NCBI GenBank assembly: GCA_036845805.1
Contig: DAIUDD010000002.1
Coordinates: 55,868-119,867 of the forward strand
DNA: 64,000 bases
Direction of reading: 5' to 3'
Source of the DNA: Patescibacteria group bacterium
GTDB taxonomy: Bacteria; Patescibacteriota; Patescibacteriia; UBA2196
Part shown: piece by piece, positions 4,602 through 60,782 of the stretch
How the letters are laid out: the number at the start of each line of letters is the position of its first letter
Numbering within the stretch: the stretch's first letter is position 1
Made by a program: the position numbers and the translations under genes
The notes under the pieces: generated by a model
The model's database searches: none
The model's input: the letters and a program-made list of their open reading frames with translations, nothing else
Told to the model about the DNA's origin: nothing

Positions 4602-5813
4602 TTAATTGTTTTTTATTACCACCTGGACCCTATTAGCCCAATTGGGAATGCGCTTACCCATACCAAGAGAAAAGACAAAACGGGCATCTTTAATATAGGG
4701 CAGAGATAATAAATAACGACGAGCTTCGCTTTCGTTCTTGCCTAAAATATTTTTTTTAATCTCATCTAAGTCAACTTTCTTAACCACTGGAAAAGTGGCT
4801 TTAATTTTTAAATCAGCCAGACCTAAATTAAAATCGGCTTGAGCATTAATGATTTCAAGACTAATGTTTTCGGCCTCACCCAAAGATTGATCTGCTTTTA
4901 AGTTGTTAGAAAATTTATCCCGAAGAACCTGGCGCATTTCTTTTTGAGAAAAAATCAAGGCTGATGCTTTTAGGGTTAAGGACAAATCAAATTCCTTCAT
5001 TTTGCTATCGGCCGCAACTTCTGGCGAAATACTGGTAACTTCGTAAGAAATTAATTGTTCGACTACTGATAAATTATCACCGGCTTCTTGGCGCAACTTG
5101 TCTTTCAATTTTATTTGCAAATTTTTAGTTAATTTATCCTTGGCTTGATCAAGATCTTCTTGCGAAACAACGGTAACAATATTAGAAGTTCCGCCTTGCA
5201 AAGGGCCGGATAATTGGCCGTAAATTTTATCTTGTTTTTCCCAGGGCAGCGAGTTGATATTAAAACGACCAGTAGTGCCATTAGCTTTATCACCAGCTTC
5301 TTTTGCTTCCACTACCACCTGAATTTGACCAGGCACGACCCTGCCTTCGGCATCAACTTTGGCACCGGGAATGGTTATTGTTTCTTTAACTCGCACAATA
5401 ACACCAGTGATGGTCATTAAATCAACATCAGGAGTTACTGGTTGAGAGGGTCCGGTAGTGTTATAAAATATAGCTTGCCCACTAGCTTTTTGACCCAAAT
5501 CTTTTTGCCCAGTAGCATTAAATTTTTCCTTAATCGATTCTTCGGCGGTTTTTAATTCGGCAACAAAAATATTATTGGCAGGATCACTCTTGGTTTGGTC
5601 GGTAGTTAATTTAAGATCTAATTCTTGAGTCATGTTTTCGGCGGTCAAAACCAAATTAACAGTGACCTGAGGAAAAAAATAGTTAAAAAGGAAAAATAAA
5701 ATTAATAGACCAGCAAAAAAAAGCCACCACTTTTTATGACGTGATACTCCTTTAAGGGGTTTATGAGAAGAAGGAAAATTTTTTTGATAGGCACCAAATT
5801 TGGTAGTAATCAT
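4602..5813 (-). CDS. Hypothetical N-terminally membrane-anchored protein, paralogous to 53491..54636
   Basis: Single TM helix (WWLFFAGLLILFFLFNYFF) followed by a large extracytoplasmic domain; shares blocks with the 53491 ORF (TVNLVLTAEN/TITLTLGEEN, GQAIFYNTTG/GQVKIINNST, TIPGAKVDAEG/SIPAGKETMA). Confidence 0.6.
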   Translation of the reverse strand: MITTKFGAYQKNFPSSHKPLKGVSRHKKWWLFFAGLLILFFLFNYFFPQVTVNLVLTAENMTQELDLKLTTDQTKSDPANNIFVAELKTAEESIKEKFNATGQKDLGQKASGQAIFYNTTGPSQPVTPDVDLMTITGVIVRVKETITIPGAKVDAEGRVVPGQIQVVVEAKEAGDKANGTTGRFNINSLPWEKQDKIYGQLSGPLQGGTSNIVTVVSQEDLDQAKDKLTKNLQIKLKDKLRQEAGDNLSVVEQLISYEVTSISPEVAADSKMKEFDLSLTLKASALIFSQKEMRQVLRDKFSNNLKADQSLGEAENISLEIINAQADFNLGLADLKIKATFPVVKKVDLDEIKKNILGKNESEARRYLLSLPYIKDARFVFSLGMGKRIPNWANRVQVVIKNN

Positions 5814-5822
5814 AAAAACAAA

Positions 5823-7700
5823 CTAAGATAGAACTGCTTTAATTCTTCTCACGCCGGCTGAACTGGCTTCTTCTTTAATAATTTTGAAAGCCCCGAGTTC
5901 GCCGGTATTTTTGACATGTGGCCCACCGCAAATTTCACAACTAAAATTTTCAGCTAAATTATTCGGGTCGCACACAGAATAAACTTTTACCTGATCGCCA
6001 TATTTATCAGCAAAGACGCCAATCGCACCTTTGGCTTTAGCTTCCGTGACAGTCATTTCTTCGCAAGTTACATCCATCTTCTTATTTATCATTTCATTAA
6101 CCAAATCTTCCGCTTGCTTAATCTGCTCCGCTGTCATTTTTTCACTATGGGAAAAATCAAACCGCATTCTCTCTTCGGTAATATTGGAACCTTTTTGATA
6201 AATATGAGGACCCAATACTTTGCGCAAAGCAGCATTCAATAAATGGGTGGCAGTATGATATTGGGTCACTTTTTCGGAATGGTCAGCCAGGCCGCCTTTA
6301 AATTTTCCGGCCGCGGCTGTGCGTGAAAGTTCCTGATGTTTTTGCATTTCAATATTAAAACCACTTTCATCAACTGCCAATCCTTTTTCTTTGGCCAACT
6401 CTTTAGTCAATTCCAAAGGAAAACCAAAACTTTGGAATAAATTAAATGCTACAATTCCCTTAATTTCTTTATCTCTGGTTGCTTCAGCAACCATCCCGCC
6501 ATGGCGGGATGAAAGCGGAGCTTCCAATTTCTTAGTTTCTTTTTCAAATTCCTTTATTCCCTCTTGCAACGTCTGAGTAAATTTTTCTTCCTCCACCTGT
6601 AAATTATCAAGCACAAATTTACGGCTACGATCTAATTCCGGATAAACATCATTCATTAAATTAATTACCACTGTCGCAATTTGGTGAGTAAAATTTTCTT
6701 TAATGCCAAGCAGGCGGCCATGGCGAATGGCACGACGAATTAATTTCCGCACCACATAGCCTTGGTCCACATTAGCGGGCGCAATACCATGATCATCGCC
6801 CATAATAAAAGTAACCGCCCGCAAATGATCAGCAATAATGCGCATCGATCTGATAGTCCCCTCCTTTTCAAGGAGGGGCCCATGCCCCGCAGGGGCAGAG
6901 GGGGTGGTTATGTATTTTTGCCCAGATAACTCTTCAATCTTTTGAATAATTGGTAAAAATAAATCTGTTTGATAATCATCATCCAAACCACTTATCACGG
7001 CTAAATTTCTTTCCAAGCCAGTGCCATTATCAATGTTTTTTTGATTGGCTGGTTTATATTTATTCTCCCCTATTTTTTCGTATTGCATTAAAACATCATT
7101 GCCAATTTCTACCCAGCGCTTGTCCGAGGGATCAAAAACTTTTGGCGCTGGTCCTTTTTTATCAACCCAATAAAACATCTCGGTGCACGGGCCGCAGGGG
7201 CCAGAATTGCCAGTTGGTTCCCACCAATTGTCTTTTTTGGGCAAAGATTTAATTCTATCTTGATCAATTCCGAGTTTTTTCCAAATTTCAATTGATTCAT
7301 CATCGCGTGGCGCATTTTCATCACCAGCAAAAACAGAGACGGCCAAAAATTTTTTATCCAAGCCAAGCTCCTTTGTAACAAACGCAAAAGTCATTTTCAA
7401 GGCTTCCTCTTTCCAATAATCTCCTATTGACCAATGACCGAGCATTTCAAAAAATGTGTGGTGAAAGCCGTCGCCGACTTCATCAATGTCACCAGTGCGA
7501 ACGCATTTTTGCGAATTAACTAGTCGCGCGCCAGCTGGATGTTTTTCGCCAAGCAAAAATGGCACGAGCGGGCTCATGCCGGCAGTGGTAAATAAAATTG
7601 AGGGATCATTTTCTGGAATTAAAGAAGCGCTCGGGATTTCTGCATGCCCATTTTTTTTAAAAAATTCAATGTATTTTTGCCGCAATTCTTTAGAAGTCAT
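5823..7700 (-). CDS. alaS: Alanyl-tRNA synthetase, short form (625 aa): catalytic, tRNA-recognition and editing domains present; no C-Ala domain
   Basis: N-terminal class II motifs, internal HTATHLLNAALRKVLGPHIYQKGSNITEERMRFDFSH editing-domain signature, and a metal-binding C..C.GGPHV site near the C-terminus. Confidence 0.9.
   Translation of the reverse strand: MTSKELRQKYIEFFKKNGHAEIPSASLIPENDPSILFTTAGMSPLVPFLLGEKHPAGARLVNSQKCVRTGDIDEVGDGFHHTFFEMLGHWSIGDYWKEEALKMTFAFVTKELGLDKKFLAVSVFAGDENAPRDDESIEIWKKLGIDQDRIKSLPKKDNWWEPTGNSGPCGPCTEMFYWVDKKGPAPKVFDPSDKRWVEIGNDVLMQYEKIGENKYKPANQKNIDNGTGLERNLAVISGLDDDYQTDLFLPIIQKIEELSGQKYITTPSAPAGHGPLLEKEGTIRSMRIIADHLRAVTFIMGDDHGIAPANVDQGYVVRKLIRRAIRHGRLLGIKENFTHQIATVVINLMNDVYPELDRSRKFVLDNLQVEEEKFTQTLQEGIKEFEKETKKLEAPLSSRHGGMVAEATRDKEIKGIVAFNLFQSFGFPLELTKELAKEKGLAVDESGFNIEMQKHQELSRTAAAGKFKGGLADHSEKVTQYHTATHLLNAALRKVLGPHIYQKGSNITEERMRFDFSHSEKMTAEQIKQAEDLVNEMINKKMDVTCEEMTVTEAKAKGAIGVFADKYGDQVKVYSVCDPNNLAENFSCEICGGPHVKNTGELGAFKIIKEEASSAGVRRIKAVLS
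6856..6912. repeat. Family-2 palindromic element (cccctccttttcaaggagggg ... cagagggggtggttat) inserted in-frame inside alaS
   Basis: Same hairpin plus ggggtggtta module as the intergenic copies at 7712-7801, 26577-26650 and 26781-26945; encodes the extra segment TPSAPAGHGPLLEKEGT just before the conserved RIIADHLRA block. Confidence 0.7.
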
Positions 7701-7711
7701 GTGGTGTTGTT

Positions 7712-7801
7712 AGTCCCCGCCTTATGAAGGCGGGGCCTCATGTTCCACCACCCTTGTGGTGAGTGGAACAGAGGGGGCGGTTAATAAGATCGCCGATAGG
7801 C
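7712..7801. repeat. Family-2 palindromic element, intergenic copy upstream of alaS
   Basis: gtccccgccttatgaaggcggggc shows compensatory changes relative to the cccctcc/ggagggg copies, so the stem is conserved; shares the 3-prime module ggttaataagatcgccgataggc with the 26577 copy. Confidence 0.7.
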
Positions 7802-7847
7802 AAAATAAATGTTATTTATATAATTTTTATTTTAACAAAAATTGACT

Positions 7848-7900
7848 AAAAAAGCAATTTTAAATATCAAAAAACCGCTTGTCTAACAAACGGTTTTTTG
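7848..7900. terminator. Bidirectional terminator-like hairpin (aaaaaccgcttgtctaacaaacggtttttt)
   Basis: Stem aaccg/cggtt flanked by an A-run and a T-run. Confidence 0.45.
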
Positions 7901-7924
7901 TCTTATCTTTCATTCGCCAACCAT

Positions 7925-8195
7925 TTTTATCTCAAGAGAGTTTGGTAGATAAAATTAATAATGATTGACGAGTGAAAGAAAGGAACTGGCTAAATTGTGA
8001 TATTCTCCGTTCCTTATTGTTTTTAAAACCCCAAAAAAGGGGTGCGAGCTCGGTATCCGGATCTGTGAATATTGGATACCTTCCTGAACTGTGTCTGGTA
8101 CTCGCGCCAGACAAGGGAAGTTCTCACGTCTATAACTTCCGAACGTAGTCATAGCTTACGGCGTATGACCGCCTTTTTAATAAGTCTCTGGTGTA
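7925..8195. ncRNA. Putative structured non-coding RNA at the 3-prime end of a high-GC island; strand and family unknown
   Basis: At least five perfect 6-7 bp stems within 270 nt (aaggaac/gttcctt, acccc/ggggt, ggtatcc/ggatacc, ggaagtt/aacttcc, gtcata/tatgac); one longer stem needs a U-G pair on the plus strand; no long ORF; no match to tmRNA, RNase P or SRP signatures that I can recognise. Confidence 0.25.
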
Positions 8196-8196
8196 T

Positions 8197-9003
8197 TTAA
8201 CCTCTTCGGCAATCCGAGGAGATCACCAGAAAAGATGTTTCTTCTGTGCCGTAGGCTGGAAAAAACACTGCTTTAGTTTCCCCTCTCCTTACTTGAGAAA
8301 CTGCAGTATTAATATCATATGGGGATTTCCACCCTCTGCGTTTCCGAACAAATCTATTAGGCCGAATAAACTTACCCGGACATTCGTGCCCAGATAATTC
8401 ATCCGTGCCTTCTTCGGAAACAACAACCACAACGTCGCAAGAACAGATTTTTTTCCCGTCGCTACTGATTGCAACGGCTCGGTCAAAATCGCTCTCGGCG
8501 TTTTTTGCGATTGACTTAACTGCTAAGGTGAGTCTCTCTAACAAAAAGCTCCGAGCCTCAATGTCATCCCAGCGAAATAGCAATGCCAAGACAACATCGG
8601 CATTGGTAATTGACCGAATTCTTCTGCCAATTACCTCGCATTGTGCGACGCCGGCTTTTCCTCGGTATTCCACCAAGTAGGCATCAATCGCACCAAAAAC
8701 ATTTGGCAACCCGTAGATATTGGCTAAATCTCCACGGATTAGCCAATCAGCCAACCCACTAGTGAGAGCCGCAAAAGATTTCTTTAGGAATCTGGTGACA
8801 ACCCCGTCCCACTGAAAGTGAGTGGTGTTAAACGGAAATACAATTTCCGCCGCATTCAACCATGCCTGTTTCCAGGACATCACGGCCGAATACCCAGCTC
8901 CAGTGGCTGGTCGTTTTTGAAGGTAATTTAAGGGATCTTTAATCCCAAAAACTTCCTCTAGCCGGTTGGCCACAAAGGCCAATTTTTTTTCTTCTAGATT
9001 CAT
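8197..9003 (-). CDS. Hypothetical protein (268 aa) in a high-GC island; no family recognised
   Basis: Long ORF with an AGGAGG RBS; local GC about 45-47% against about 33% genome-wide; contains a Cys/His cluster (CSCD...HECPG); structured leader (hairpins 9028-9042 and 9065-9101). Confidence 0.5.
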   Translation of the reverse strand: MNLEEKKLAFVANRLEEVFGIKDPLNYLQKRPATGAGYSAVMSWKQAWLNAAEIVFPFNTTHFQWDGVVTRFLKKSFAALTSGLADWLIRGDLANIYGLPNVFGAIDAYLVEYRGKAGVAQCEVIGRRIRSITNADVVLALLFRWDDIEARSFLLERLTLAVKSIAKNAESDFDRAVAISSDGKKICSCDVVVVVSEEGTDELSGHECPGKFIRPNRFVRKRRGWKSPYDINTAVSQVRRGETKAVFFPAYGTEETSFLVISSDCRRG

Positions 9004-9218
9004 AACTTCCTCCTAAGAAGTTTGTTCGGGAGCACTACTCCCGTTTGCCTGCTTGACCATCAAGCAGTATTTTGAATACTAAAATAATAATCAAAATACT
9101 GCCTGTGGTAATTTTTTAAAGGACTATTTTCTTCTCTTCTAAAACTTTCCAAAAAATGAAAAGTTTTAGTAAAGAGCCAAAGCAGCGGTGCATTGCTGCT
9201 TTGGCAAAAGCGTGTGGA

Positions 9219-9614
9219 TTACTCCGCATTCTGGAACACGCGTTCCAGAATGGCGAAATAATTTGACTTTTGGTCTCCACTCCCGATATATTGGGAGCAG
9301 ACAGCCACCCATTCGCCACCACCTCGGTTGGTGCACACGAGGTGGGCGTTAGAGGTGGCTGAGCCAAAAGTCAAGCTCAGCAGGTCTTGGGGCCGATAGC
9401 CCTTCCACCCGCCGAACTGGCCATCCAGAAATAAAACATTTTCTGAACGGTCTTCATAGGGGTCTACCACGACATCACGGTAGCCCCACGAGTTGACCGC
9501 GATCCACACGCGATCGATGGCAAAACATTTCTCCTCCTCACCTTGGGTGAGAAGGCGGCTCAACCTGCAGAGTTGCGACTCTGTAAGGAGCCTTGTTTCT
9601 TTTAAAAAACTCAT
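9219..9614 (-). CDS. Hypothetical protein (131 aa), same high-GC island
   Basis: ORF with a GGAG RBS 7 nt upstream of the ATG; high GC; co-directional with the 8197-9003 ORF. Confidence 0.5.
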   Translation of the reverse strand: MSFLKETRLLTESQLCRLSRLLTQGEEEKCFAIDRVWIAVNSWGYRDVVVDPYEDRSENVLFLDGQFGGWKGYRPQDLLSLTFGSATSNAHLVCTNRGGGEWVAVCSQYIGSGDQKSNYFAILERVFQNAE

Positions 9615-10146
9615 AATTTCTCCAATTTTTTAACCGACGCCCAATTGCGCCAGTAAACCAGTATGCTCTGGATTGGAGAATCTTGCCACCGCTTCTATTT
9701 CTTTTTTTAAGAAACAAAAGTGGTGGCAAAAAAAATTTTAAAGAACTTTTTTTCTATTGACTGTGGTGAAGACGATTTTCTTAGTAAGAGGCAGATCAAT
9801 AAACAATGTTTGTTAATATCCGCGTTACTAATGTCTCTCTTCTCCACCACGGTCCTTAGAAACAAAAAAGTCTTCTACTGTTCAAGAGAGAAGACCATAA
9901 TTAATAAATCTAATAAAAATTGACTTGTTGTAGGGCTCGCAGTGCCTACCAGACTGTCTCTCTTGTTTTAATCCTAAATTGTAAAGATTAAAATTTATCT
10001 CACATTTTTTATTTTGTATATCTTATTATAGCACACTTGTATAATTTTGTCAATAGATAGATTGTGTATAAATAAAAAAATTACCTAAAATTAGCTAAAT
10101 TAAAGACGTGATAAATCACGTCTCTACAACCATAATTATTACTTTT

Positions 10147-25738: not shown

Positions 25739-25841
25739 ATGTCATTCTGAGGAGCAAAGCGACGAAGAATCCCATATTATCCATGACTGACGGGCTTCCC
25801 TCGTCCCCCACTAGGTTTAGTGGGGGAATCGGAATGACATT
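25739..25841. mobile_element. Family-1 MITE-like palindromic element with terminal inverted repeats aatgtcattc / gaatgacatt, between hrcA and grpE
   Basis: About 103 bp; perfect 10-bp TIRs; internal hairpin cccccactaggtttagtggggg; the hrcA stop codon lies in the right TIR. Confidence 0.65.
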
Positions 25842-26529
25842 ATTTTAAGATATTCTTTACAAAATTTATTAATTCGACATTTTTTTGATAATTCATGCGC
25901 ATCGGACCAATAATGCCTAAGAGCACATTTTTTATTTTAATCATGACCGCGGAGCAGTCGCTTGAAAAATTATTGTCACGGCCGATTTTAATCACAGTTT
26001 CTTCTCTAACTTCTTCATAAACCCTTTTCATTACCTCATCCAAATGATCAATGACTGCAGAAAAATTACAAACCAGATCTACGTTATTAAATTCCGGCTG
26101 GGAAAAAAGATTAGCGAGCCCGGTATAATAGGAATCACCTGGCCCGAAACCAATAAAAACACCAAGTTCTGATTTTTCCGCTAAAATTTTGGCTAAATTT
26201 TTAATCTTTTGTGCTGAATCTTTAATGTCTTTAAAATTTTGAATATCTTTAATTAGTTGTTCTTTTTCCTTACCACTTAATTCGCTTTTTAAATCAATTT
26301 GTTCCGTCACATATTTTTTATAACCATATTCGGTGGGCACCCGGCCAGCAGAAATATGCGGCTGGAAAATATATCCAGCTTCTTCCAACTCCATCATATC
26401 GTTTCTAACAGTAGCCGAGGAAACGTCAATTTTATATTTGTCCACGATTAATTTAGACCCGACTGGTTCAGCTGTACGGATATATTCATCAATAATATTT
26501 TTAAATAATTCTTTTTGACGAGGGTGCAT
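25840..26529 (-). CDS. hrcA: Heat-inducible transcription repressor HrcA
   Basis: N-terminal winged helix (RTAEPVGSKLIV...VSSATVRNDM), typical length; a CIRCE operator lies upstream. Confidence 0.85.
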   Translation of the reverse strand: MHPRQKELFKNIIDEYIRTAEPVGSKLIVDKYKIDVSSATVRNDMMELEEAGYIFQPHISAGRVPTEYGYKKYVTEQIDLKSELSGKEKEQLIKDIQNFKDIKDSAQKIKNLAKILAEKSELGVFIGFGPGDSYYTGLANLFSQPEFNNVDLVCNFSAVIDHLDEVMKRVYEEVREETVIKIGRDNNFSSDCSAVMIKIKNVLLGIIGPMRMNYQKNVELINFVKNILK

Positions 26530-26650: not shown

Positions 26651-26742
26651 ATAGTTTCCCTTTATTTCTCTTTTTCTTTATTTCTTAATTACTTTTTCAT
26701 TTATCCCCAACTTTTTTAATCTATTTCCATTATACAAAACAA

Positions 26743-26769
26743 TTAGCACTCGTGTCAAGCGAGTGCTAA
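26743..26769. promoter_or_regulatory. CIRCE operator (HrcA binding site) ttagcactc-N9-gagtgctaa
   Basis: Perfect match to the CIRCE consensus TTAGCACTC-N9-GAGTGCTAA, upstream of hrcA-grpE. Confidence 0.85.
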
Positions 26770-26780
26770 ATGGATTAGCA

Positions 26781-26945
26781 GTCCCCTCCTTTTGAAGGAG
26801 GGGCCTTAAGCCCGAAGGGCTAAGGTGGTGGTTATGGTATTTAGAATTAATTTTATCTTAATGTTATAACCACCCCCGTCTCTGCTTCGCAGAGTCGCCC
26901 GTTAATGTTTGCCGTTGTGGCAAACATTAACTTTAAAAGGAGGGG
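26781..26945. repeat. Composite family-2 palindromic elements (two hairpin modules plus the perfect hairpin gttaatgtttgcc-gttgt-ggcaaacattaac)
   Basis: cccctccttttgaaggagggg ... ggtggtggttat and, inverted, ataaccacccccgtctctg. Confidence 0.65.
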
Positions 26946-27062
26946 ATAAAAAGCTAATTTTAGCCAAAATTTCTATTAGCTATTGACATAATAATAATAA
27001 GATATAATGGTGACATAAATTTTTTAACTTTTTCACAAATCACAAATCAGGGAGGCAAAAAA

Positions 27063-27419
27063 ATGAAAGCCTACTGGATAGAGGGGTTTGGAATTTGTGT
27101 GCCATATGATTCTCAAAAACATCTCCAGTATATTTGCAAATTTATGGTGATGTCCACGCCCGACGGCAATATTATAATTGCCGGTCCTCAAAATACACAT
27201 CGCGCTCTGATGAAGGACGCGGAAAATTTGTTGGAGATGTTAAATTCTCGATCACCCAGATATCCTCTTTATGCTGGCGAGTGCGCCCGCGGTGGAAAAA
27301 TTAATTTATTTGATATGCTTTTTTCATCTGATTGGGAAAGCGTTGAATTTGGAGCGCACACCCCACAAAACATGCGCCTTGAAATTGTAAAAATTTTGGG
27401 ATTAATTACAAAAGCGTAA
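27063..27419 (+). CDS. Hypothetical protein (118 aa) in a self-contained high-GC cassette with its own promoter, RBS and terminator
   Basis: RBS gggagg; upstream ttgacataataataataag motif; downstream hairpin terminator 27456-27490; GC about 45%. Confidence 0.5.
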   Translation: MKAYWIEGFGICVPYDSQKHLQYICKFMVMSTPDGNIIIAGPQNTHRALMKDAENLLEMLNSRSPRYPLYAGECARGGKINLFDMLFSSDWESVEFGAHTPQNMRLEIVKILGLITKA

Positions 27420-27455
27420 CGGTCCCCAGAAATCGGGTGCGAAGATTCTTGTTAG

Positions 27456-27490
27456 CACATTTCCTTATGGAATGTGCTTTTTATTTTTTC
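27456..27490 (+). terminator. Terminator (gcacatttccttatggaatgtgc + T-run)
   Basis: Perfect 9-bp stem plus T-run. Confidence 0.65.
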
Positions 27491-28098: not shown

Positions 28099-28519
28099 GG
28101 TTGTCATTCCGAGGAGTAAAGCGACGAGGAATCCCGTGTGATTACCAGCACCCCGGTTTTCCAAAATCGCTCCCAAATTAAACTTAAATCATTAAAATTT
28201 GGATTTATTAGTTTAATTAAATTTATCTTCTTTTCCCTTCTCCATCCTTTGATTTCTTTTTCTCGTTTTATAGCTTCAAGCGGTTTATTAAAACATTCAA
28301 AATAAACTAACTTATTAATATTATACCTTTTTGTAAAACCTTCTTTCTTTTTTCTTTCATGCTGTTTATCTCTATTAGGCAGATATCCAGAAATACCAGT
28401 ATAAAAAACAGTGTTTCTTTGATTAGACATGATGTAAGTACAATAATTTTTTGGTCTTTTGATTCTCATATTTGTTATGATAACACGGGATCCTTCGCTA
28501 ATCGCTCAGGATGACAACC
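28099..28519. mobile_element. Family-1 palindromic element split into two halves by a GIY-YIG nuclease gene
   Basis: Left half ggttgtcattccgaggagtaaagcgacgaggaatcccgtgtgat (28099-28142) and right half atgataacacgggatccttcgctaatcgctcaggatgacaacc (28476-28519) form a 43-bp imperfect inverted repeat; the 366-bp GIY-YIG ORF lies exactly between them. Confidence 0.5.
28104..28469 (-). CDS. GIY-YIG nuclease family protein (YhbQ/COG2827-like)
   Basis: YIMSNQRNTVFYTGISGYLPNRDKQHE...LVYFECFNKPLEAIKREKEIKGWRREKKINLI matches the GIY-YIG motifs; the last 15 codons and the stop are encoded by the repeat half. Confidence 0.8.
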   Translation of the reverse strand: MRIKRPKNYCTYIMSNQRNTVFYTGISGYLPNRDKQHERKKKEGFTKRYNINKLVYFECFNKPLEAIKREKEIKGWRREKKINLIKLINPNFNDLSLIWERFWKTGVLVITRDSSSLYSSE

Positions 28520-58482: not shown

Positions 58483-60057
58483 CTAATTATTTGGCAAGGG
58501 TTGGTATTGGAAGATAAAAATTAAAACAATAAAGCCAATGCCCAAAGGATGATTTAAATAGGGGGTAAAGATATTAACGGCGAGTAAGGCCACTAAGGCG
58601 ATGCCAAATGAATAATGAATTATGAATAATGAATTATGGTTTTTTTGATTTAAGTTTGAAAAATTAGAATTTGTTTCGAATTTTAATAACTTTTTTATAA
58701 TTAAAAAAAATAAATATAAATAAATGCCTAATCCAACTAGCCCAAATTTAAGGATCATATCCAAATAGCCCCACTCAGAAGCATAAGTAGTCACTTCGCC
58801 GCTTTGGCCAGCAGTTTCATTAATTAAGCGCGGGTCAGTGCTAAAATAAGTAAAAGTGGCGCCAAAGCCAGAACCAATTAGAGGGTGTTTTTTTATACCT
58901 TGCCATAAGGGTGTTAATTGATTCAGGCGGGCAGCCGAGGCAGCTTCACCTTGAGTTAAACGTTGGCCTAAAATACTAGCCCAGTCCCCCACTGGTTTTG
59001 GCGGCAAAAAATAAATGGCACTAACCAAAACCAGACTGGCGAATAAAAATAAAATTATTTTTCCAATCTGTTTTAAAATATTAAAAAATTTTTCTTTAGT
59101 GATAATAAAATAAACCAAATAACTAAGCAGGCCGGCGATTAAACCCACCCAGAAACTGCGGGAAAAAGAAATAATTAGCACGGCTAAACAAAAAATTGGC
59201 AATAAAAAATCAATTAAGATTGAATAAATTTTGTGTTCAGTTTTTTTAAATTTTAAACCAACAAACAAAATAAAAAATAAAATTAAAACATAAATTTGCG
59301 CCGGCATAAATATGCGCCAGACATTGCCAGCCACATGAGTAATTTCAGCGACATTGGTATCGCGCACCCATTGATATATTTCCGGCAGAAAAAAAGAAAC
59401 TTGATGAGTAAAAATATAAAATAAAAATATAGTTTTTAAAAAAATAACACTGCCGGCAGCGCATAAAATTGAGATAATGTTTATTATGAATTTGTGTTTA
59501 TTCGTGTTCTTATTGGTGTAGATTAGTGTCATTGGCAGCGCAACTAACCAATACAACCAATTATTAAAATCTAAAAACACATTACCAAAATCATTGCCGC
59601 GAATTATTCCCCAAACAAAGGCCCAGACAACAATGATTGTCATTCCGAGTTCCGCAATTAATGCGGAACGAGGAATCCTGCGGAAAACAGAATTAATTTT
59701 GTATAATGTTTTGCTTTGTTTTTCACGGGATCCTTCGTCGTTAACACTCCTCAGGATGACATTTACTAAAAACACTGCCATCACCACTATAAAAATTCCC
59801 ATCCTTATAGATAAAACCGTGTTACCTAAATCTACCGAAAACAGATATCCTTTAGAACCAACAAATAATTCTGCTAGTAAAATATAAAGGCCATATTTTA
59901 ATTTGTATAAAGATAAAAAAAGCGTGGCTAAAATTATAGCCACAAAACAAACCGTATTTAGCCAATGATTGGCCCAGCTTAAATATGACAAAATTTCTGC
60001 TAAAATTAGCAAAAAAAATGTAATTTTAAAATATTTTTTACTAATAAAACTTGACAT
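58483..60057 (-). CDS. O-antigen ligase/polymerase-like (Wzy/WaaL family) polytopic membrane protein carrying an in-frame palindromic element
   Basis: More than 10 TM helices and a large periplasmic loop; the element at 59636-59762 encodes VILRSVNDEGSREKQSKTLYKINSVFRRIPRSALIAELGMT. Confidence 0.6.
   Translation of the reverse strand: MSSFISKKYFKITFFLLILAEILSYLSWANHWLNTVCFVAIILATLFLSLYKLKYGLYILLAELFVGSKGYLFSVDLGNTVLSIRMGIFIVVMAVFLVNVILRSVNDEGSREKQSKTLYKINSVFRRIPRSALIAELGMTIIVVWAFVWGIIRGNDFGNVFLDFNNWLYWLVALPMTLIYTNKNTNKHKFIINIISILCAAGSVIFLKTIFLFYIFTHQVSFFLPEIYQWVRDTNVAEITHVAGNVWRIFMPAQIYVLILFFILFVGLKFKKTEHKIYSILIDFLLPIFCLAVLIISFSRSFWVGLIAGLLSYLVYFIITKEKFFNILKQIGKIILFLFASLVLVSAIYFLPPKPVGDWASILGQRLTQGEAASAARLNQLTPLWQGIKKHPLIGSGFGATFTYFSTDPRLINETAGQSGEVTTYASEWGYLDMILKFGLVGLGIYLYLFFLIIKKLLKFETNSNFSNLNQKNHNSLFIIHYSFGIALVALLAVNIFTPYLNHPLGIGFIVLIFIFQYQPLPNN
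59636..59762. mobile_element. Family-1 MITE-like element (TIRs attgtcattccgag / ctcaggatgacat) inserted in-frame in the Wzy-like gene
   Basis: 127 bp with about 13-bp TIRs; preserves the reading frame (42 codons). Confidence 0.65.
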
Positions 60058-60129
60058 AATAATAATAATAAGCTAAGATGGGTGCAAATACTTATGACAG
60101 TGGTCGTAAACATACCAAAAAGGAGGGTG

Positions 60130-60557
60130 TCATGAAAAAGGAGATGTCCATTCGTGATTTTCTGATGATGCCGGAGATCGTGGACTCGCTCATTGGCGAG
60201 GTGATCAAAACAATGGTGAACGGAAATTTCGTCGAACCCGATGACGCGGTAGCGGGTTCGGAAAGAGTATTGGGGGAAATGAATGCGCTCGAAAGAGCTT
60301 TGTACACCCTCCTTTACAACTGTAAAAAAGAACACGAAACGATGGAGGAACGCCACGACCACAAGAAGTGTATGTCCATCGGGCAGAGAGCTGCTTCTCT
60401 CCGGGGAATGCTTTGGGAGAGCGTCGAAAAAAGGTTTGCCGCCGGGATTGACAATGAAGAGGTCGGTGGCACGGGGGTGCGAAAGGGCTTCAAAATTGTC
60501 ACTTTTCCTCCCCAAACATCCTCGGTCTTCATGGAGATTTTAAGAGCCAGTCTTTAA
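60130..60557 (+). CDS. Hypothetical protein (142 aa) in a self-contained high-GC cassette
   Basis: RBS aaaggaggg before the ATG; GC about 48%; upstream ttgacataataataataataag motif; downstream terminator 60566-60600. Confidence 0.5.
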
Positions 60558-60565
60558 GTTACGGG

Positions 60566-60600
60566 TCACCGGTGAAACCACCGGTGATTTTTTATTTTTT
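60566..60600 (+). terminator. Terminator (tcaccggtgaaaccaccggtga + T-run)
   Basis: Perfect 9-bp stem plus T-run. Confidence 0.65.
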
Positions 60601-60686
60601 TATCTTCTACCAACCTTTAGTTAAGGGTCGGTTCCGATTTATCAGGGCTTTTATTTTTATTTAATTTTCGGTAACACTACTCTTTT

Positions 60687-60773
60687 TTGTCATCCTCGTT
60701 CACCTTTTGTCATCCTCGCGAAAGCGAGGATCTGGGTATTTTTTTGGATTTCCGGTTAGATCGGGAATGACAA
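60687..60773. mobile_element. Family-1 MITE-like element (ttgtcatcctcg ... gggaatgacaa)
   Basis: Duplicated left TIR (ttgtcatcctcg twice) and a gaatgacaa right end. Confidence 0.55.
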
Positions 60774-60782
60774 ATAAAAATA

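Follow-up and report, generated by a model that had tools for sequence, protein, structure and literature searches.

Within the window, the 64,000-nucleotide stretch of Patescibacteria DNA analysed here, the region between a GT2 gene and a Wzy-like gene is interpreted, with a probability of about 0.6, as a moron-like, self-contained single-gene cassette that entered, in opposite orientation, an operon (GT2-Wzy-GT2-GT2) whose genes had been translationally coupled. As it stands, the locus is a well-characterised insertion coding for a 'hypothetical protein'. The features of the locus are collected in Table 1.

Table 1. Features of the inserted segment and of a related promoter module elsewhere in the window.
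Feature	Position	Strand	Description and basis
Inserted segment	60058-60782		725 bp, between the GT2 stop (60783, minus) and the Wzy-like start codon (60057, minus)
Putative sigma-70-type promoter	60051-60079	+	TTGACA-17 nt-TAAGAT; consensus match, kept in sibling L020
-35 hexamer	60051-60056	+	TTGACA
-10 hexamer	60074-60079	+	TAAGAT
(TAA)5 microsatellite	60057-60071	+	Spacer of the promoter; doubles, on the minus strand, as the leader directly before the Wzy ATG
5' UTR	60086-60131	+	About 46 nt; start site inferred from the -10 position
SD	60119-60127	+	AAAGGAGGG; 4 nt 5' of the ATG
CDS	60132-60557	+	141-aa acidic protein (pI 5.7), predicted cytoplasmic; 82 homologs, motifs, dN/dS
Possible anti-SD	60304-60315	+	ACACCCTCCTTT; perfect 12-nt complement of the SD region 60119-60130
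His/Cys stretch	60348-60383 (residues 73-84)	+	ERHDHKKCMSIG; tip between two long helices (predicted model)
Predicted intrinsic terminator	60563-60600	+	Stem 60563-60590, 12 bp (6 G-C), AAAC loop, T-run to about 60600
Non-coding flank kept in sibling genome	60603-60670	+	TTCTACCAACCTTTAGTTAAGGGT ... CTTTTATTTTTATTTAATTTTC; alignment
Hairpin repeat	60688-60732	+	TGTCATCCT-N-AGGATC, one and a half copies, then T-run; dispersed repeat
Sister promoter module	26983-27008	+	TTGACA(TAA)4GATATAAT; upstream of an unrelated 118-aa ORF (27063-27419)

The insertion site and its predicted expression signals

In L014-L017, the orthologous GT2 stop and Wzy start codons are only 3 nt apart (TAA-AAT-ATG), and the Wzy N-terminus of these loci, MLDLIDKKYFKY, aligns with MSSFISKKYFK of the window. 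Since the two codons are this close in more distant relatives, the segment at 60058-60782 is considered to be an insertion. The presence/absence comparison proposed in the initial annotation located an ortholog at the same site in the closest sibling (L020) and no such segment in L014-L017. The sibling ortholog encodes 148 aa with 41–43% identity to the protein of the window, and it is preceded by the same promoter with (TAA)6. In a third species (L012), the same site is occupied by an unrelated 63-aa Cys-rich ORF with a TTGACA-17-TATTAT promoter. Six conspecific contigs were identical across the cassette; the differences seen in L006 are concentrated within the GT2 gene, at the end of a contig.

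The interrupted operon is one for cell-envelope glycosylation (surface sugar), and its host is a Patescibacteria (CPR) bacterium. Flanking genes include ribosomal and core genes (L1/L11/NusG/SecE), gyrB, DNA Pol III and glycosyltransferase genes. The cassette had been described as lying immediately after the Wzy-like gene, but on the Wzy coding strand it is located upstream and is divergent. An antisense ORF of 169 aa (60006-60515, minus) was discarded, the sibling genome having no conserved counterpart of it.

The proposal that the segment constitutes a self-contained expression unit was supported, as a predicted promoter, an SD, an ORF and a predicted terminator are present on the strand opposite to the operon; the hexamers TTGACA and TAAGAT with their 17-bp spacer, the RBS, and the terminator with its T-run were each located. 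The promoter had also been singled out for its clean geometry. The sequence is indeed as described, but a single promoter match is not above chance (37 promoter-like matches were scored in 7 kb, vs 21.6 expected). Support for the promoter is therefore drawn from its perfect conservation in the sibling despite a diverged coding sequence, and not from the consensus match alone: from -35 through -10 the two genomes are identical save for one extra TAA in L020, whose coding sequence shares only 58% nucleotide identity. This conservation could partly stem from constraint on the overlapping Wzy start and leader. The -35 hexamer overlaps both the Wzy start codon (60057-60055, minus) and Wzy codons 2-3, and the spacer consists of (TAA)5 plus GC, with the repeat occupying 15 of the 17 nt.

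The sequence of the 5' UTR is poorly kept in L020 with the exception of the SD, of which AGGAGGG is conserved, and strong SDs are found upstream of most other family members examined. An analogous CACCGG-containing hairpin followed by a T-run is present in L020, and terminators follow nine of the ten other transcription units examined. The hairpin repeat further downstream may serve as a back-up terminator; it also occurs downstream of a cassette elsewhere in the window (27494) and of the 63-aa unit in L012, and it is dispersed throughout the genome, also inside CDSs.

The initial annotation had regarded the unit as a second copy of a high-GC cassette at 26940-27490. The proteins are, however, unrelated: the 118-aa protein of that first cassette was tried as a relative of the 141-aa family and rejected (hhalign probability of 0.5%), and its ORF is not GC-rich either (40.6% GC, GC3 of 0.39). 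Common to both cassettes is a TTGACA(TAA)n module of about 18 nt, identical at 26983 and 60051 (18-mer), and nothing else. Tracts of (TAA)≥4 occur at three places in the window, two of them directly after TTGACA. No second copy of the 141-aa family was detected within the window.

The encoded protein and its family

The protein is 141 aa long rather than the 142 aa annotated earlier, a count of codons that included the stop. The GenBank form is 159 aa from an ATG at position 60078, which overlaps the -10 box and is not preceded by an SD. We favour the ATG at 60132 because all homologs align from the Met at this position. An exhaustive profile-free HMMER scan identified 82 relatives at E ≤ 1e-3, and the family amounts to at least 82 clusters when grouped at 50% identity. 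Wherever a lineage is named for a member, it falls within Patescibacteria, including Gracilibacteria, Komeilibacteria, Minisyncoccia and Saccharibacteria, and every member bearing a name is called 'hypothetical'. Most of the proteins are between ~130 and 200 residues in size; fused double-domain forms of ~320 aa and a tandem pair were also found. The conserved motifs are G-x-F-x-[ED]-P, E-x-V-I-G-E-M-N-x-L-E-K-A-L-Y-T, W-x-S-I-x-x-R and G-x-G-[VI]-R-x-G-F-K-I-V. A dN/dS of 0.34 was obtained between the ORF of the window and the sibling ortholog. Judged by its sequence, the ORF is a genuine protein gene of an unnamed family.

The statement that the protein matches no recognised family was confirmed, with no matches above threshold in Pfam, NCBIfam, PHROGs and PADLOC; the same databases searched with 43 relatives gave nothing beyond scattered single-member noise. 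The homology check proved the initial annotation right in one respect, as no homolog of known function was retrieved, and incomplete in another, since a protein with 82 relatives and clear motifs is not an orphan. A word-indexed search of 5.8 billion proteins returned the query protein itself only, and with the family profile this search returned 7 proteins only. Family members are solitary, with no neighbour conserved across 11 loci, and guilt by association with neighbour genes yielded no conserved partner. As other members are found in unrelated contexts without glycan genes, the function of the protein appears to be independent of its context.

The structure was predicted using AF2, which produced a confident model from a 43-sequence alignment (pLDDT 94, pTM 0.84), vs a pLDDT of 48 from the single sequence. 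In this model the chain begins with short N-terminal helices and a beta-strand, continues into a long helical hairpin whose tip is hypervariable, and ends with a beta-hairpin and a C-terminal helix. No relative of the fold was detected among solved or viral structures. A PDB sequence-profile search resulted in noise only, and BFVD viral structures gave no meaningful match.

The protein is predicted to be cytoplasmic, and it is probably a dimer, as suggested by the tandem paralogs and the fused double-domain forms. The conserved beta-sheet and helix base would provide a scaffold or active surface around E44, E49, E54, W95, R101 and R117, with the hypervariable helical tip, often Cys/His-rich, setting the binding specificity. 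We infer that an accessory binding or 'conflict' factor (immunity, anti-phage or host interaction) would fit better than a housekeeping enzyme.

Composition, divergence and alternative readings

The high GC content reported for the ORF persisted upon exact computation, at 49.3% vs 36.35% for the window (z-score of ~4.8), and only 0.5% of 426-nt windows are equally GC-rich. GC at the three codon positions is 0.52, 0.36 and 0.60 (GC3 0.599), compared with a median GC3 of 0.31 for the 58 ORFs of the window, among which this ORF is one of only two GC3 outliers; neighbouring genes have 33–40% GC and a GC3 of 0.30–0.40. The two findings that the initial annotation had named against itself, a homolog of known function and a normal GC content, did not occur. 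A similar excess is seen in the sibling ortholog (GC3 of 0.63 vs 0.28 in its flanks), and members in other AT-rich hosts (L021, L022 and L026) are also GC-richer than their flanks. The excess is not family-wide, however, with the members in L007, L009 and L010 being near their flanks. High GC3 could be kept by selection instead of transfer.

Comparison with the sibling established, at the level of substitution rates, that the cassette has diverged much faster than its neighbours: dS/dN was 1.46/0.49 for the cassette, 0.87/0.21 for GT2 and 0.84/0.07 for YkuD, bearing in mind that the dS excess (1.46 vs ~0.85) is near saturation and confounded by differing base composition. The gene family probably circulates horizontally, or its alleles are exchanged between the conserved flanks, so that inheritance would not be strictly vertical. 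A simpler history, in which the gene was acquired recently and only once from a GC-richer donor, has not ameliorated and has no special properties, is in keeping with a GC3 of 0.60 vs 0.31 for the window, with the insertion into a conserved operon and with the homologs present in GC-richer Patescibacteria, e.g. L008 and L009 (45% GC). We nevertheless find this history improbable. The sibling species carries the gene in the identical position and with the same excess in GC3, and dS between its flanks and those of the window is ~0.85, so that the acquisition is not recent unless it happened there on two occasions. The same GC excess in members from other AT-rich hosts also speaks against it.

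A broader interpretation, which we put forward as conjecture and regard as improbable in its entirety, is that of an unrecognised class of self-expressing single-gene Patescibacteria cassettes that bring along, or settle at, a TTGACA-(TAA)n promoter module and exchange their cargo at fixed chromosomal sites, the cargo being a 141/148-aa member in two species and the unrelated 63-aa Cys-rich ORF in the third. The foreign GC-rich codon signature would then be kept by horizontal circulation, possibly via the TGTCATCCT...AGGATC hairpins, the 141-aa protein would be a fast-evolving new fold engaged in phage/host conflict, and length changes of (TAA)n would jointly control the cassette and the overlapping start of the surface-glycan polymerase gene.

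Transcription of the cassette would be antisense to read-through from GT2 into Wzy, and it could consequently interfere with the downstream half of the operon. Such read-through is possible because the terminator stem is not followed by a T-run on the minus strand. This raises the alternative that the unit is mainly regulatory, possibly a phase-variable switch or an insulator for surface-glycan genes, with the protein being secondary. Consistent with it are the missing minus-strand T-run, the overlap of the -35 hexamer with the Wzy ATG, the double role of (TAA)5 as promoter spacer and Wzy leader, and the occupation of the site by an opposite-strand unit in three species with differing cargo; furthermore, the spacers of cassette 1 (14 nt, (TAA)4 to TATAAT), the window (17 nt, (TAA)5) and L020 (20 nt, (TAA)6) differ by one TAA unit each. 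We rate a mainly regulatory unit as unlikely, given that all six conspecific assembled contigs have exactly (TAA)5, that five trinucleotide units are a short tract for frequent slippage, and that other family members occur away from any glycan genes. If the promoter does truly interfere with the Wzy start, the locus would offer a simple model for the control of surface-glycan genes in an episymbiont.

A further alternative is a true phage moron, left over from a prophage or another mobile element, or else a toxin/antitoxin or defence gene. In its favour are the moron-like anatomy and the surroundings of some homologs, which include a transposase (L026), a RelB/DinJ-like ORF and Hcp (L007), or tRNA genes. 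A tRNA gene is located ~90–510 nt upstream of the family gene in four of the five GTDB loci, and such proximity, typical of insertion hot spots, also fits the inserted cassette favoured here. These origins are nonetheless quite unlikely. No phage genes were observed within 10 kb on either side of the cassette, where the flanks are core genes. Searches beside the family members, tRNA-adjacent homologs included, found no mobility machinery, att-like direct repeats or integrase, which also weighs against the favoured reading of a moron-like cassette. IMG/VR viral contigs scanned with the family pattern and tblastn searches of the phage (INPHARED) and plasmid (PLSDB) collections produced no match, a result that likewise counts against the favoured reading; PHROGs, PADLOC and BFVD gave no meaningful one, and the gene is solitary and lacks a partner gene.

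The His/Cys stretch pointed out in the initial annotation is present, but it is not a feature of the family, as H75, H77 and C80 are mostly replaced by E/K/L in relatives. That the protein is a small metal-binding protein or sensor of the CsoR-like type, using this stretch, is very doubtful. In the model, HDHxxC sits at the tip of the helical hairpin, similar patterns are present in P0002 (HDRVMC) and P0009 (HDHSLC), and CxxC clusters are found in several members, either within this loop or in C-terminal tails. The His/Cys columns are unconserved, however, and in many members the loop contains neither Cys nor His; the match to CsoR spans a generic helical hairpin only, and the residues invariant across the family are E, W, R and G.

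GC-rich islands in AT-rich genomes are often structured ncRNA genes, and here a predicted promoter and terminator enclose a segment that is GC-rich for a genome of 36% GC, folding of 60086-60600 gives an MFE z-score of -4.2 (-2.7 without the terminator), and a perfect 12-nt long-range pairing is present. The pairing involves ACACCCTCCTTT, which is paired in the MFE fold and lies within the codons of the conserved ...YTLL... motif; its significance as an anti-SD is uncertain since L020 does not share it. A structured non-coding RNA gene with an incidental ORF is the least likely reading of all, in view of conservation of protein and motifs across 82 relatives, a coding-like GC1>GC2<GC3 pattern with a dN/dS of 0.34, an AF2 pLDDT of 94 only when the homolog alignment is supplied, no Rfam match at gathering score (noise only at E ≤ 5), and a sibling transcript that folds no better than shuffled sequence (z of -1.7) and is devoid of the long-range pairing.

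Significance and comparison with known systems

CPR/Patescibacteria genomes are small and streamlined, with about half of their genes lacking a known function, and to our knowledge the gain and exchange of accessory genes in these bacteria is poorly understood. The locus described here is a clean three-species example of a single-gene unit with its own predicted expression signals inserted into a tightly coupled operon, in which the codon composition has remained foreign through substantial divergence and the cargo varies behind a promoter at the same position. It also draws attention to an unnamed family with a confident predicted fold, and because this fold is unmatched by solved or viral structures the family lends itself to structural and functional study.

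Among known systems, CsoR/RcnR-like metal sensors carry conserved Cys/His ligands on a helical bundle, a conservation that is not seen in the present family. Type II toxin-antitoxin and known defence systems are two-gene or multi-gene operons, whereas the present unit is monocistronic, with no matches in PADLOC or Pfam. The likeness to the other Patescibacteria 'hypothetical' families lies in a small size, the lack of a Pfam/NCBIfam model and the exclusive occurrence of the lineage-named members in Patescibacteria; the differences are the GC3 excess over the hosts, unusually fast evolution and an unmatched fold predicted with high confidence.

Haemophilus hif and Neisseria porA/opc are known for phase-variable promoters in which a simple repeat lies between the -35 and -10 hexamers. 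As in these promoters, a simple repeat forms the spacer and the number of repeats differs between related loci; unlike them, the repeat here is a trinucleotide in only 4-6 copies, and no length variation was seen among six conspecific assembled contigs. Integron cassettes are likewise single-ORF units; they can be swapped at one defined site, and each has an imperfect hairpin behind it, which would correspond to the TGTCATCCT...AGGATC repeat after three cassettes. They are normally promoterless and depend on Pc, in contrast to the unit described here with its own predicted promoter and terminator, and the hairpin of the latter belongs to a dispersed repeat that is also found in CDSs. A Pfam scan of the immediate neighbours of the cassette detected no recombinase.

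The phage 'moron', a concept that is said to go back to Juhala and Hendrix, resembles the cassette in being an extra unit with one ORF between a promoter and an intrinsic terminator (both predicted for the cassette), in sitting between genes that are adjacent in related genomes (725 bp vs 3 nt), and in having a base composition different from that of its neighbours. It differs in that the present cassette resides among core genes of a bacterial chromosome rather than in phage or prophage DNA, runs counter to the operon around it, and occupies a site that holds different cargo in a related species (L012).

Organization of the cassette and its insertion site

The promoter, SD and terminator that the initial annotation had described behind the Wzy-like gene were all found, and so was the ORF, whose product has 141 rather than 142 residues (see the table). 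In GenBank the ORF is annotated as a 159-aa form starting at ATG 60078. We rejected this start, as it overlaps the -10 box and lacks an SD, while all homologs align from the downstream Met. By its sequence layout the cassette is a self-contained single-gene unit, oriented against the GT2-Wzy-GT2-GT2 glycosylation operon; its -35 hexamer overlaps Wzy codons 1-3, and the repeat-containing spacer doubles as the immediate leader of Wzy. The transcript would start near 60086 and end near 60600. On the minus strand the cassette terminator has no T-run, so Wzy probably owes its expression to transcription continuing from GT2; being antisense to the cassette, such read-through would permit mutual interference between the two. 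A perfect 12-nt complementarity was observed between the SD region (60119-60130) and positions 60304-60315, in codons of the conserved ...YTLL... motif; this complement falls inside the ORF, 173 nt downstream, and the predicted MFE fold of the mRNA shows it paired. It was not relied upon because it is absent from the sibling locus L020.

A scan of 7 kb returned 37 promoter-like matches against 21.6 expected, and a single match in AT-rich DNA is not significant; the case for the putative cassette promoter rests on conservation between genomes, which we reached through GT2 orthologs. In four more distant relatives (L014-L017; GT2 55-58% identical) the operon is contiguous, the GT2 stop being joined to the Wzy start by TAA-AAT-ATG, and the Wzy N-terminus MLDLIDKKYFKY aligns with MSSFISKKYFK of the window. 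This contiguity identifies the 725 bp at 60058-60782 as an insertion at the operon junction. The closest sibling, L020 (GT2 67% identical by BLAST and 72% over a global alignment; YkuD 87%), carries P0002, a homolog of the 141-aa protein, at the corresponding site and likewise oriented against the operon, with the same SD core, a similar terminator and a promoter identical except for (TAA)6 instead of (TAA)5. A third relative, L012, is fully syntenic between SecE and L25 and has at this position a TTGACA-17-TATTAT promoter that also overlaps the Wzy ATG. Its GT2/Wzy junction (5750-6187) holds an unrelated 63-aa Cys-rich ORF (…CLRCNKPNECCHCDEDEEIF) with its own SD, terminator and two hairpin repeats, for which Pfam gave no match. 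The junction is thus a cargo-variable slot.

Positions of the cassette and of other features in the window
Feature	Position	Strand	Detail
Inserted segment	60058-60782		725 bp
Cassette -35 hexamer	60051-60056	+	TTGACA
Cassette promoter spacer			17 nt, (TAA)5 then GC
Cassette -10 hexamer	60074-60079	+	TAAGAT
Cassette SD	60119-60127	+	AAAGGAGGG
Cassette ORF	60132-60557	+	start ATG at 60132; stop codon ends 60557
Cassette terminator	60563-60590		12-pair hairpin, then T-run
First cassette	26983-27490		TTGACA(TAA)4; spacer only 14 nt to perfect TATAAT
First-cassette ORF	27063-27419		118 aa, GC3 0.39
GC3-outlier promoter	10053-10025	-	perfect TTGACA-17-TATAAT; then leader of about 400 nt
GC3-outlier 131-aa ORF	9219-9614	-	GC 52.5%, GC3 0.61
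GC3-outlier 268-aa ORF	8197-9003	-	
GC3-outlier tail			GC-rich non-coding, about 300 nt; terminator near 7865-7900
CIRCE-like inverted repeat	26729-26767	-	TTAGCACTC-N9-GAGTGCTAA
HrcA-like ORF	25840-26529		
Hairpin repeat	18831, 22147, 27494, 28516(-), 34116, 34762, 59761(-), 60688, 60708		TGTCATCCT-N(8-23)-AGGATC

The encoded protein and its family

Curated libraries gave no match for the 141-aa protein, in which the initial annotation had recognised no family, and a word-indexed search of 5.8 billion proteins yielded nothing beyond the query. When 1.84 billion cluster representatives were scanned exhaustively with phmmer, 82 relatives emerged at E<=1e-3, the best being P0002 (148 aa, 43% identity, E=5e-26). 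The cassette ORF is a protein gene, neither an orphan nor an RNA. The reading as an RNA gene fails on the absence of any Rfam match, a coding-like GC1/GC2/GC3 pattern, a dN/dS of 0.34 and a sibling transcript that folds no better than shuffled controls.

Most family members are about 130-200 aa long; in a few of about 280-340 aa the domain is present at least twice. They share the motifs G-x-F-x-[ED]-P, E-x-V-I-G-E-M-N-x-L-E-K-A-L-Y-T, W-x-S-I-x-x-R-[LF] and G-x-G-[VI]-R-x-G-[FY]-K-[IV]-V. Members with a named source belong to Gracilibacteria, Komeilibacteria, Minisyncoccia and Saccharibacteria, all annotated as hypothetical; two loci are labelled Gammaproteobacteria MAGs, and their genomes look CPR.

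AlphaFold2 gave a pLDDT of 48 from the single sequence, and of 94 (pTM 0.84) with 43 homologs. The predicted fold opens with short helices at the N-terminus and a beta-strand (residues 45-49); two long helices (52-71 and 77-101) come next, followed by a beta-hairpin (113-125), and a C-terminal helix closes it. The invariant positions (E/W/R/G) are concentrated in the beta-sheet and at the base of the helices, whereas the tip of the helices is hypervariable and often rich in Cys/His. The His/Cys stretch pointed out earlier is present at the tip of the predicted helical hairpin, where the family varies most, and shows no conservation. The protein is probably cytoplasmic, since it is acidic (pI 5.7) and contains no hydrophobic segment. 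It may act as a dimer, as suggested by tandem paralogs with stop/start overlap (ATGA) at L008 (5600-6480) and by double-domain fusions about 320-340 aa in length (listed with tandem paralogs as P0004, P0006, P0012, P0020, P0042 and P0074). With low confidence, the conserved base, hypervariable tip and fast evolution suggest a binding or conflict factor.

Composition, divergence and genomic context

The high GC content first noted for the cassette is clearly anomalous: its ORF has 49.3% GC and a GC3 of 0.60, against 36.35% GC for the window and a median ORF GC3 of 0.31. Only one other of the 58 window ORFs, the 131-aa ORF on the minus strand, has a comparable GC3. The excess is shared by the L020 ortholog (0.60-0.63 in the two genomes, flanking genes about 0.28-0.31) and recurs in the AT-rich hosts of L021 (0.47 vs 0.14-0.29), L022 (0.51 vs 0.31-0.35) and L026 (0.46 vs 0.33-0.37); it is absent in hosts around 39-45% GC (L007, L009, L010). 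When the window and L020 were compared gene by gene, the cassette ORF (41% amino acid identity, dS 1.46, dN 0.49) had diverged far more than the flanking GT2 (72%, 0.87, 0.21) and YkuD (87%, 0.84, 0.07).

Family genes are solitary, with 0 neighbours conserved across 11 loci. A terminator hairpin with T-run ends 9/10 of the other transcription units examined; most have a strong SD and several a recognisable TTGACA promoter. At four of the five GTDB loci (L007-L010) the family gene, at about 5600-6000, is preceded at a distance of about 90-510 nt by a tRNA gene (Gly, Asn, Ala or Gln), a frequency far above the one expected from tRNA density. No att-like direct repeats were found beside the tRNA-adjacent genes, and no integrase, phage or plasmid links for the family. 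We read the family as moving horizontally, or as being replaced between conserved flanks, rather than as strictly vertically inherited; selection maintaining GC-rich codons is an alternative.

At L022/L023 the family gene stands between a 171-aa ORF of high GC (…WFQWYCRYYMGRR…) and a very acidic 65-aa ORF with its own TTGACA-17-TATACT promoter (L023 825-1340 and 2428-2625); neither matched Pfam, and the neighbourhood may be a small foreign islet. An Hcp-like (T6SS_HCP) ORF in L007 is followed, at 7680-8111, by an array in which repeats of about 20 nt that contain AAGTTTAAAACTTG occur together with duplicated units of about 100 nt.

Shared elements in the window and likeness to known systems

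The cassette had been regarded as a second copy of the first cassette, itself taken as high-GC. The two proteins are unrelated, the first-cassette ORF has an ordinary GC3 and no family match, and the upstream regions differ beyond about 20-25 nt. The 18-mer TTGACATAATAATAATAA has exactly two occurrences in the window (26983 and 60051), and at least four TAA units in succession occur in only three places, two of which abut TTGACA, so that coincidence does not account for the shared module. The 5' UTR of the first cassette contains AATCACAAAT, as does that of the L012 63-aa cassette.

A dispersed hairpin repeat with nine matches (0.01 expected) looks like a REP/RPE-like element. Copies follow each of the two window cassettes and the L012 cassette; one lies in frame within the Wzy-like CDS (59729-59760, 'VILRSVNDEGS') and one at the 3' end of a RecJ-like ORF, adjoining a small GIY-YIG-like ORF (28104-28469). 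The other strong GC3 outlier (7860-10060, minus strand) lies downstream of an 878-aa HerA/mad8-like ATPase ORF; neither of its ORFs matched Pfam or PADLOC, and the only Rfam match, to Phe_leader, fell below threshold. In front of the HrcA-like ORF the CIRCE-like repeat overlaps a perfect TTGACA-18-TATAAT promoter, the classic layout of a heat-shock operator. Across the 64 kb, ARAGORN found no tRNA genes and no Rfam family reached gathering score.

The cassette is not a toxin-antitoxin or known defence gene. An integron cassette was rejected as well, because the unit comes with a putative promoter and no attC or integrase was identified, the Pfam scan covering the immediate neighbours. The repeat within the promoter spacer recalls phase-variable promoters; however, (TAA)n showed no length polymorphism among six conspecific contigs. 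The cassette is a real, well-delimited, moron-like insertion, and its cargo belongs to a Patescibacteria protein family that has no name and whose predicted fold is unmatched among solved or viral structures. It resembles a phage moron in sitting between otherwise adjacent genes, in carrying a putative promoter and terminator of its own and in its foreign composition, but it is not in a phage, the defining requirement. Small hypothetical-gene insertions are by themselves common in such genomes; unusual here are a site that varies in cargo, a promoter module that is shared and a GC3 excess that persists.
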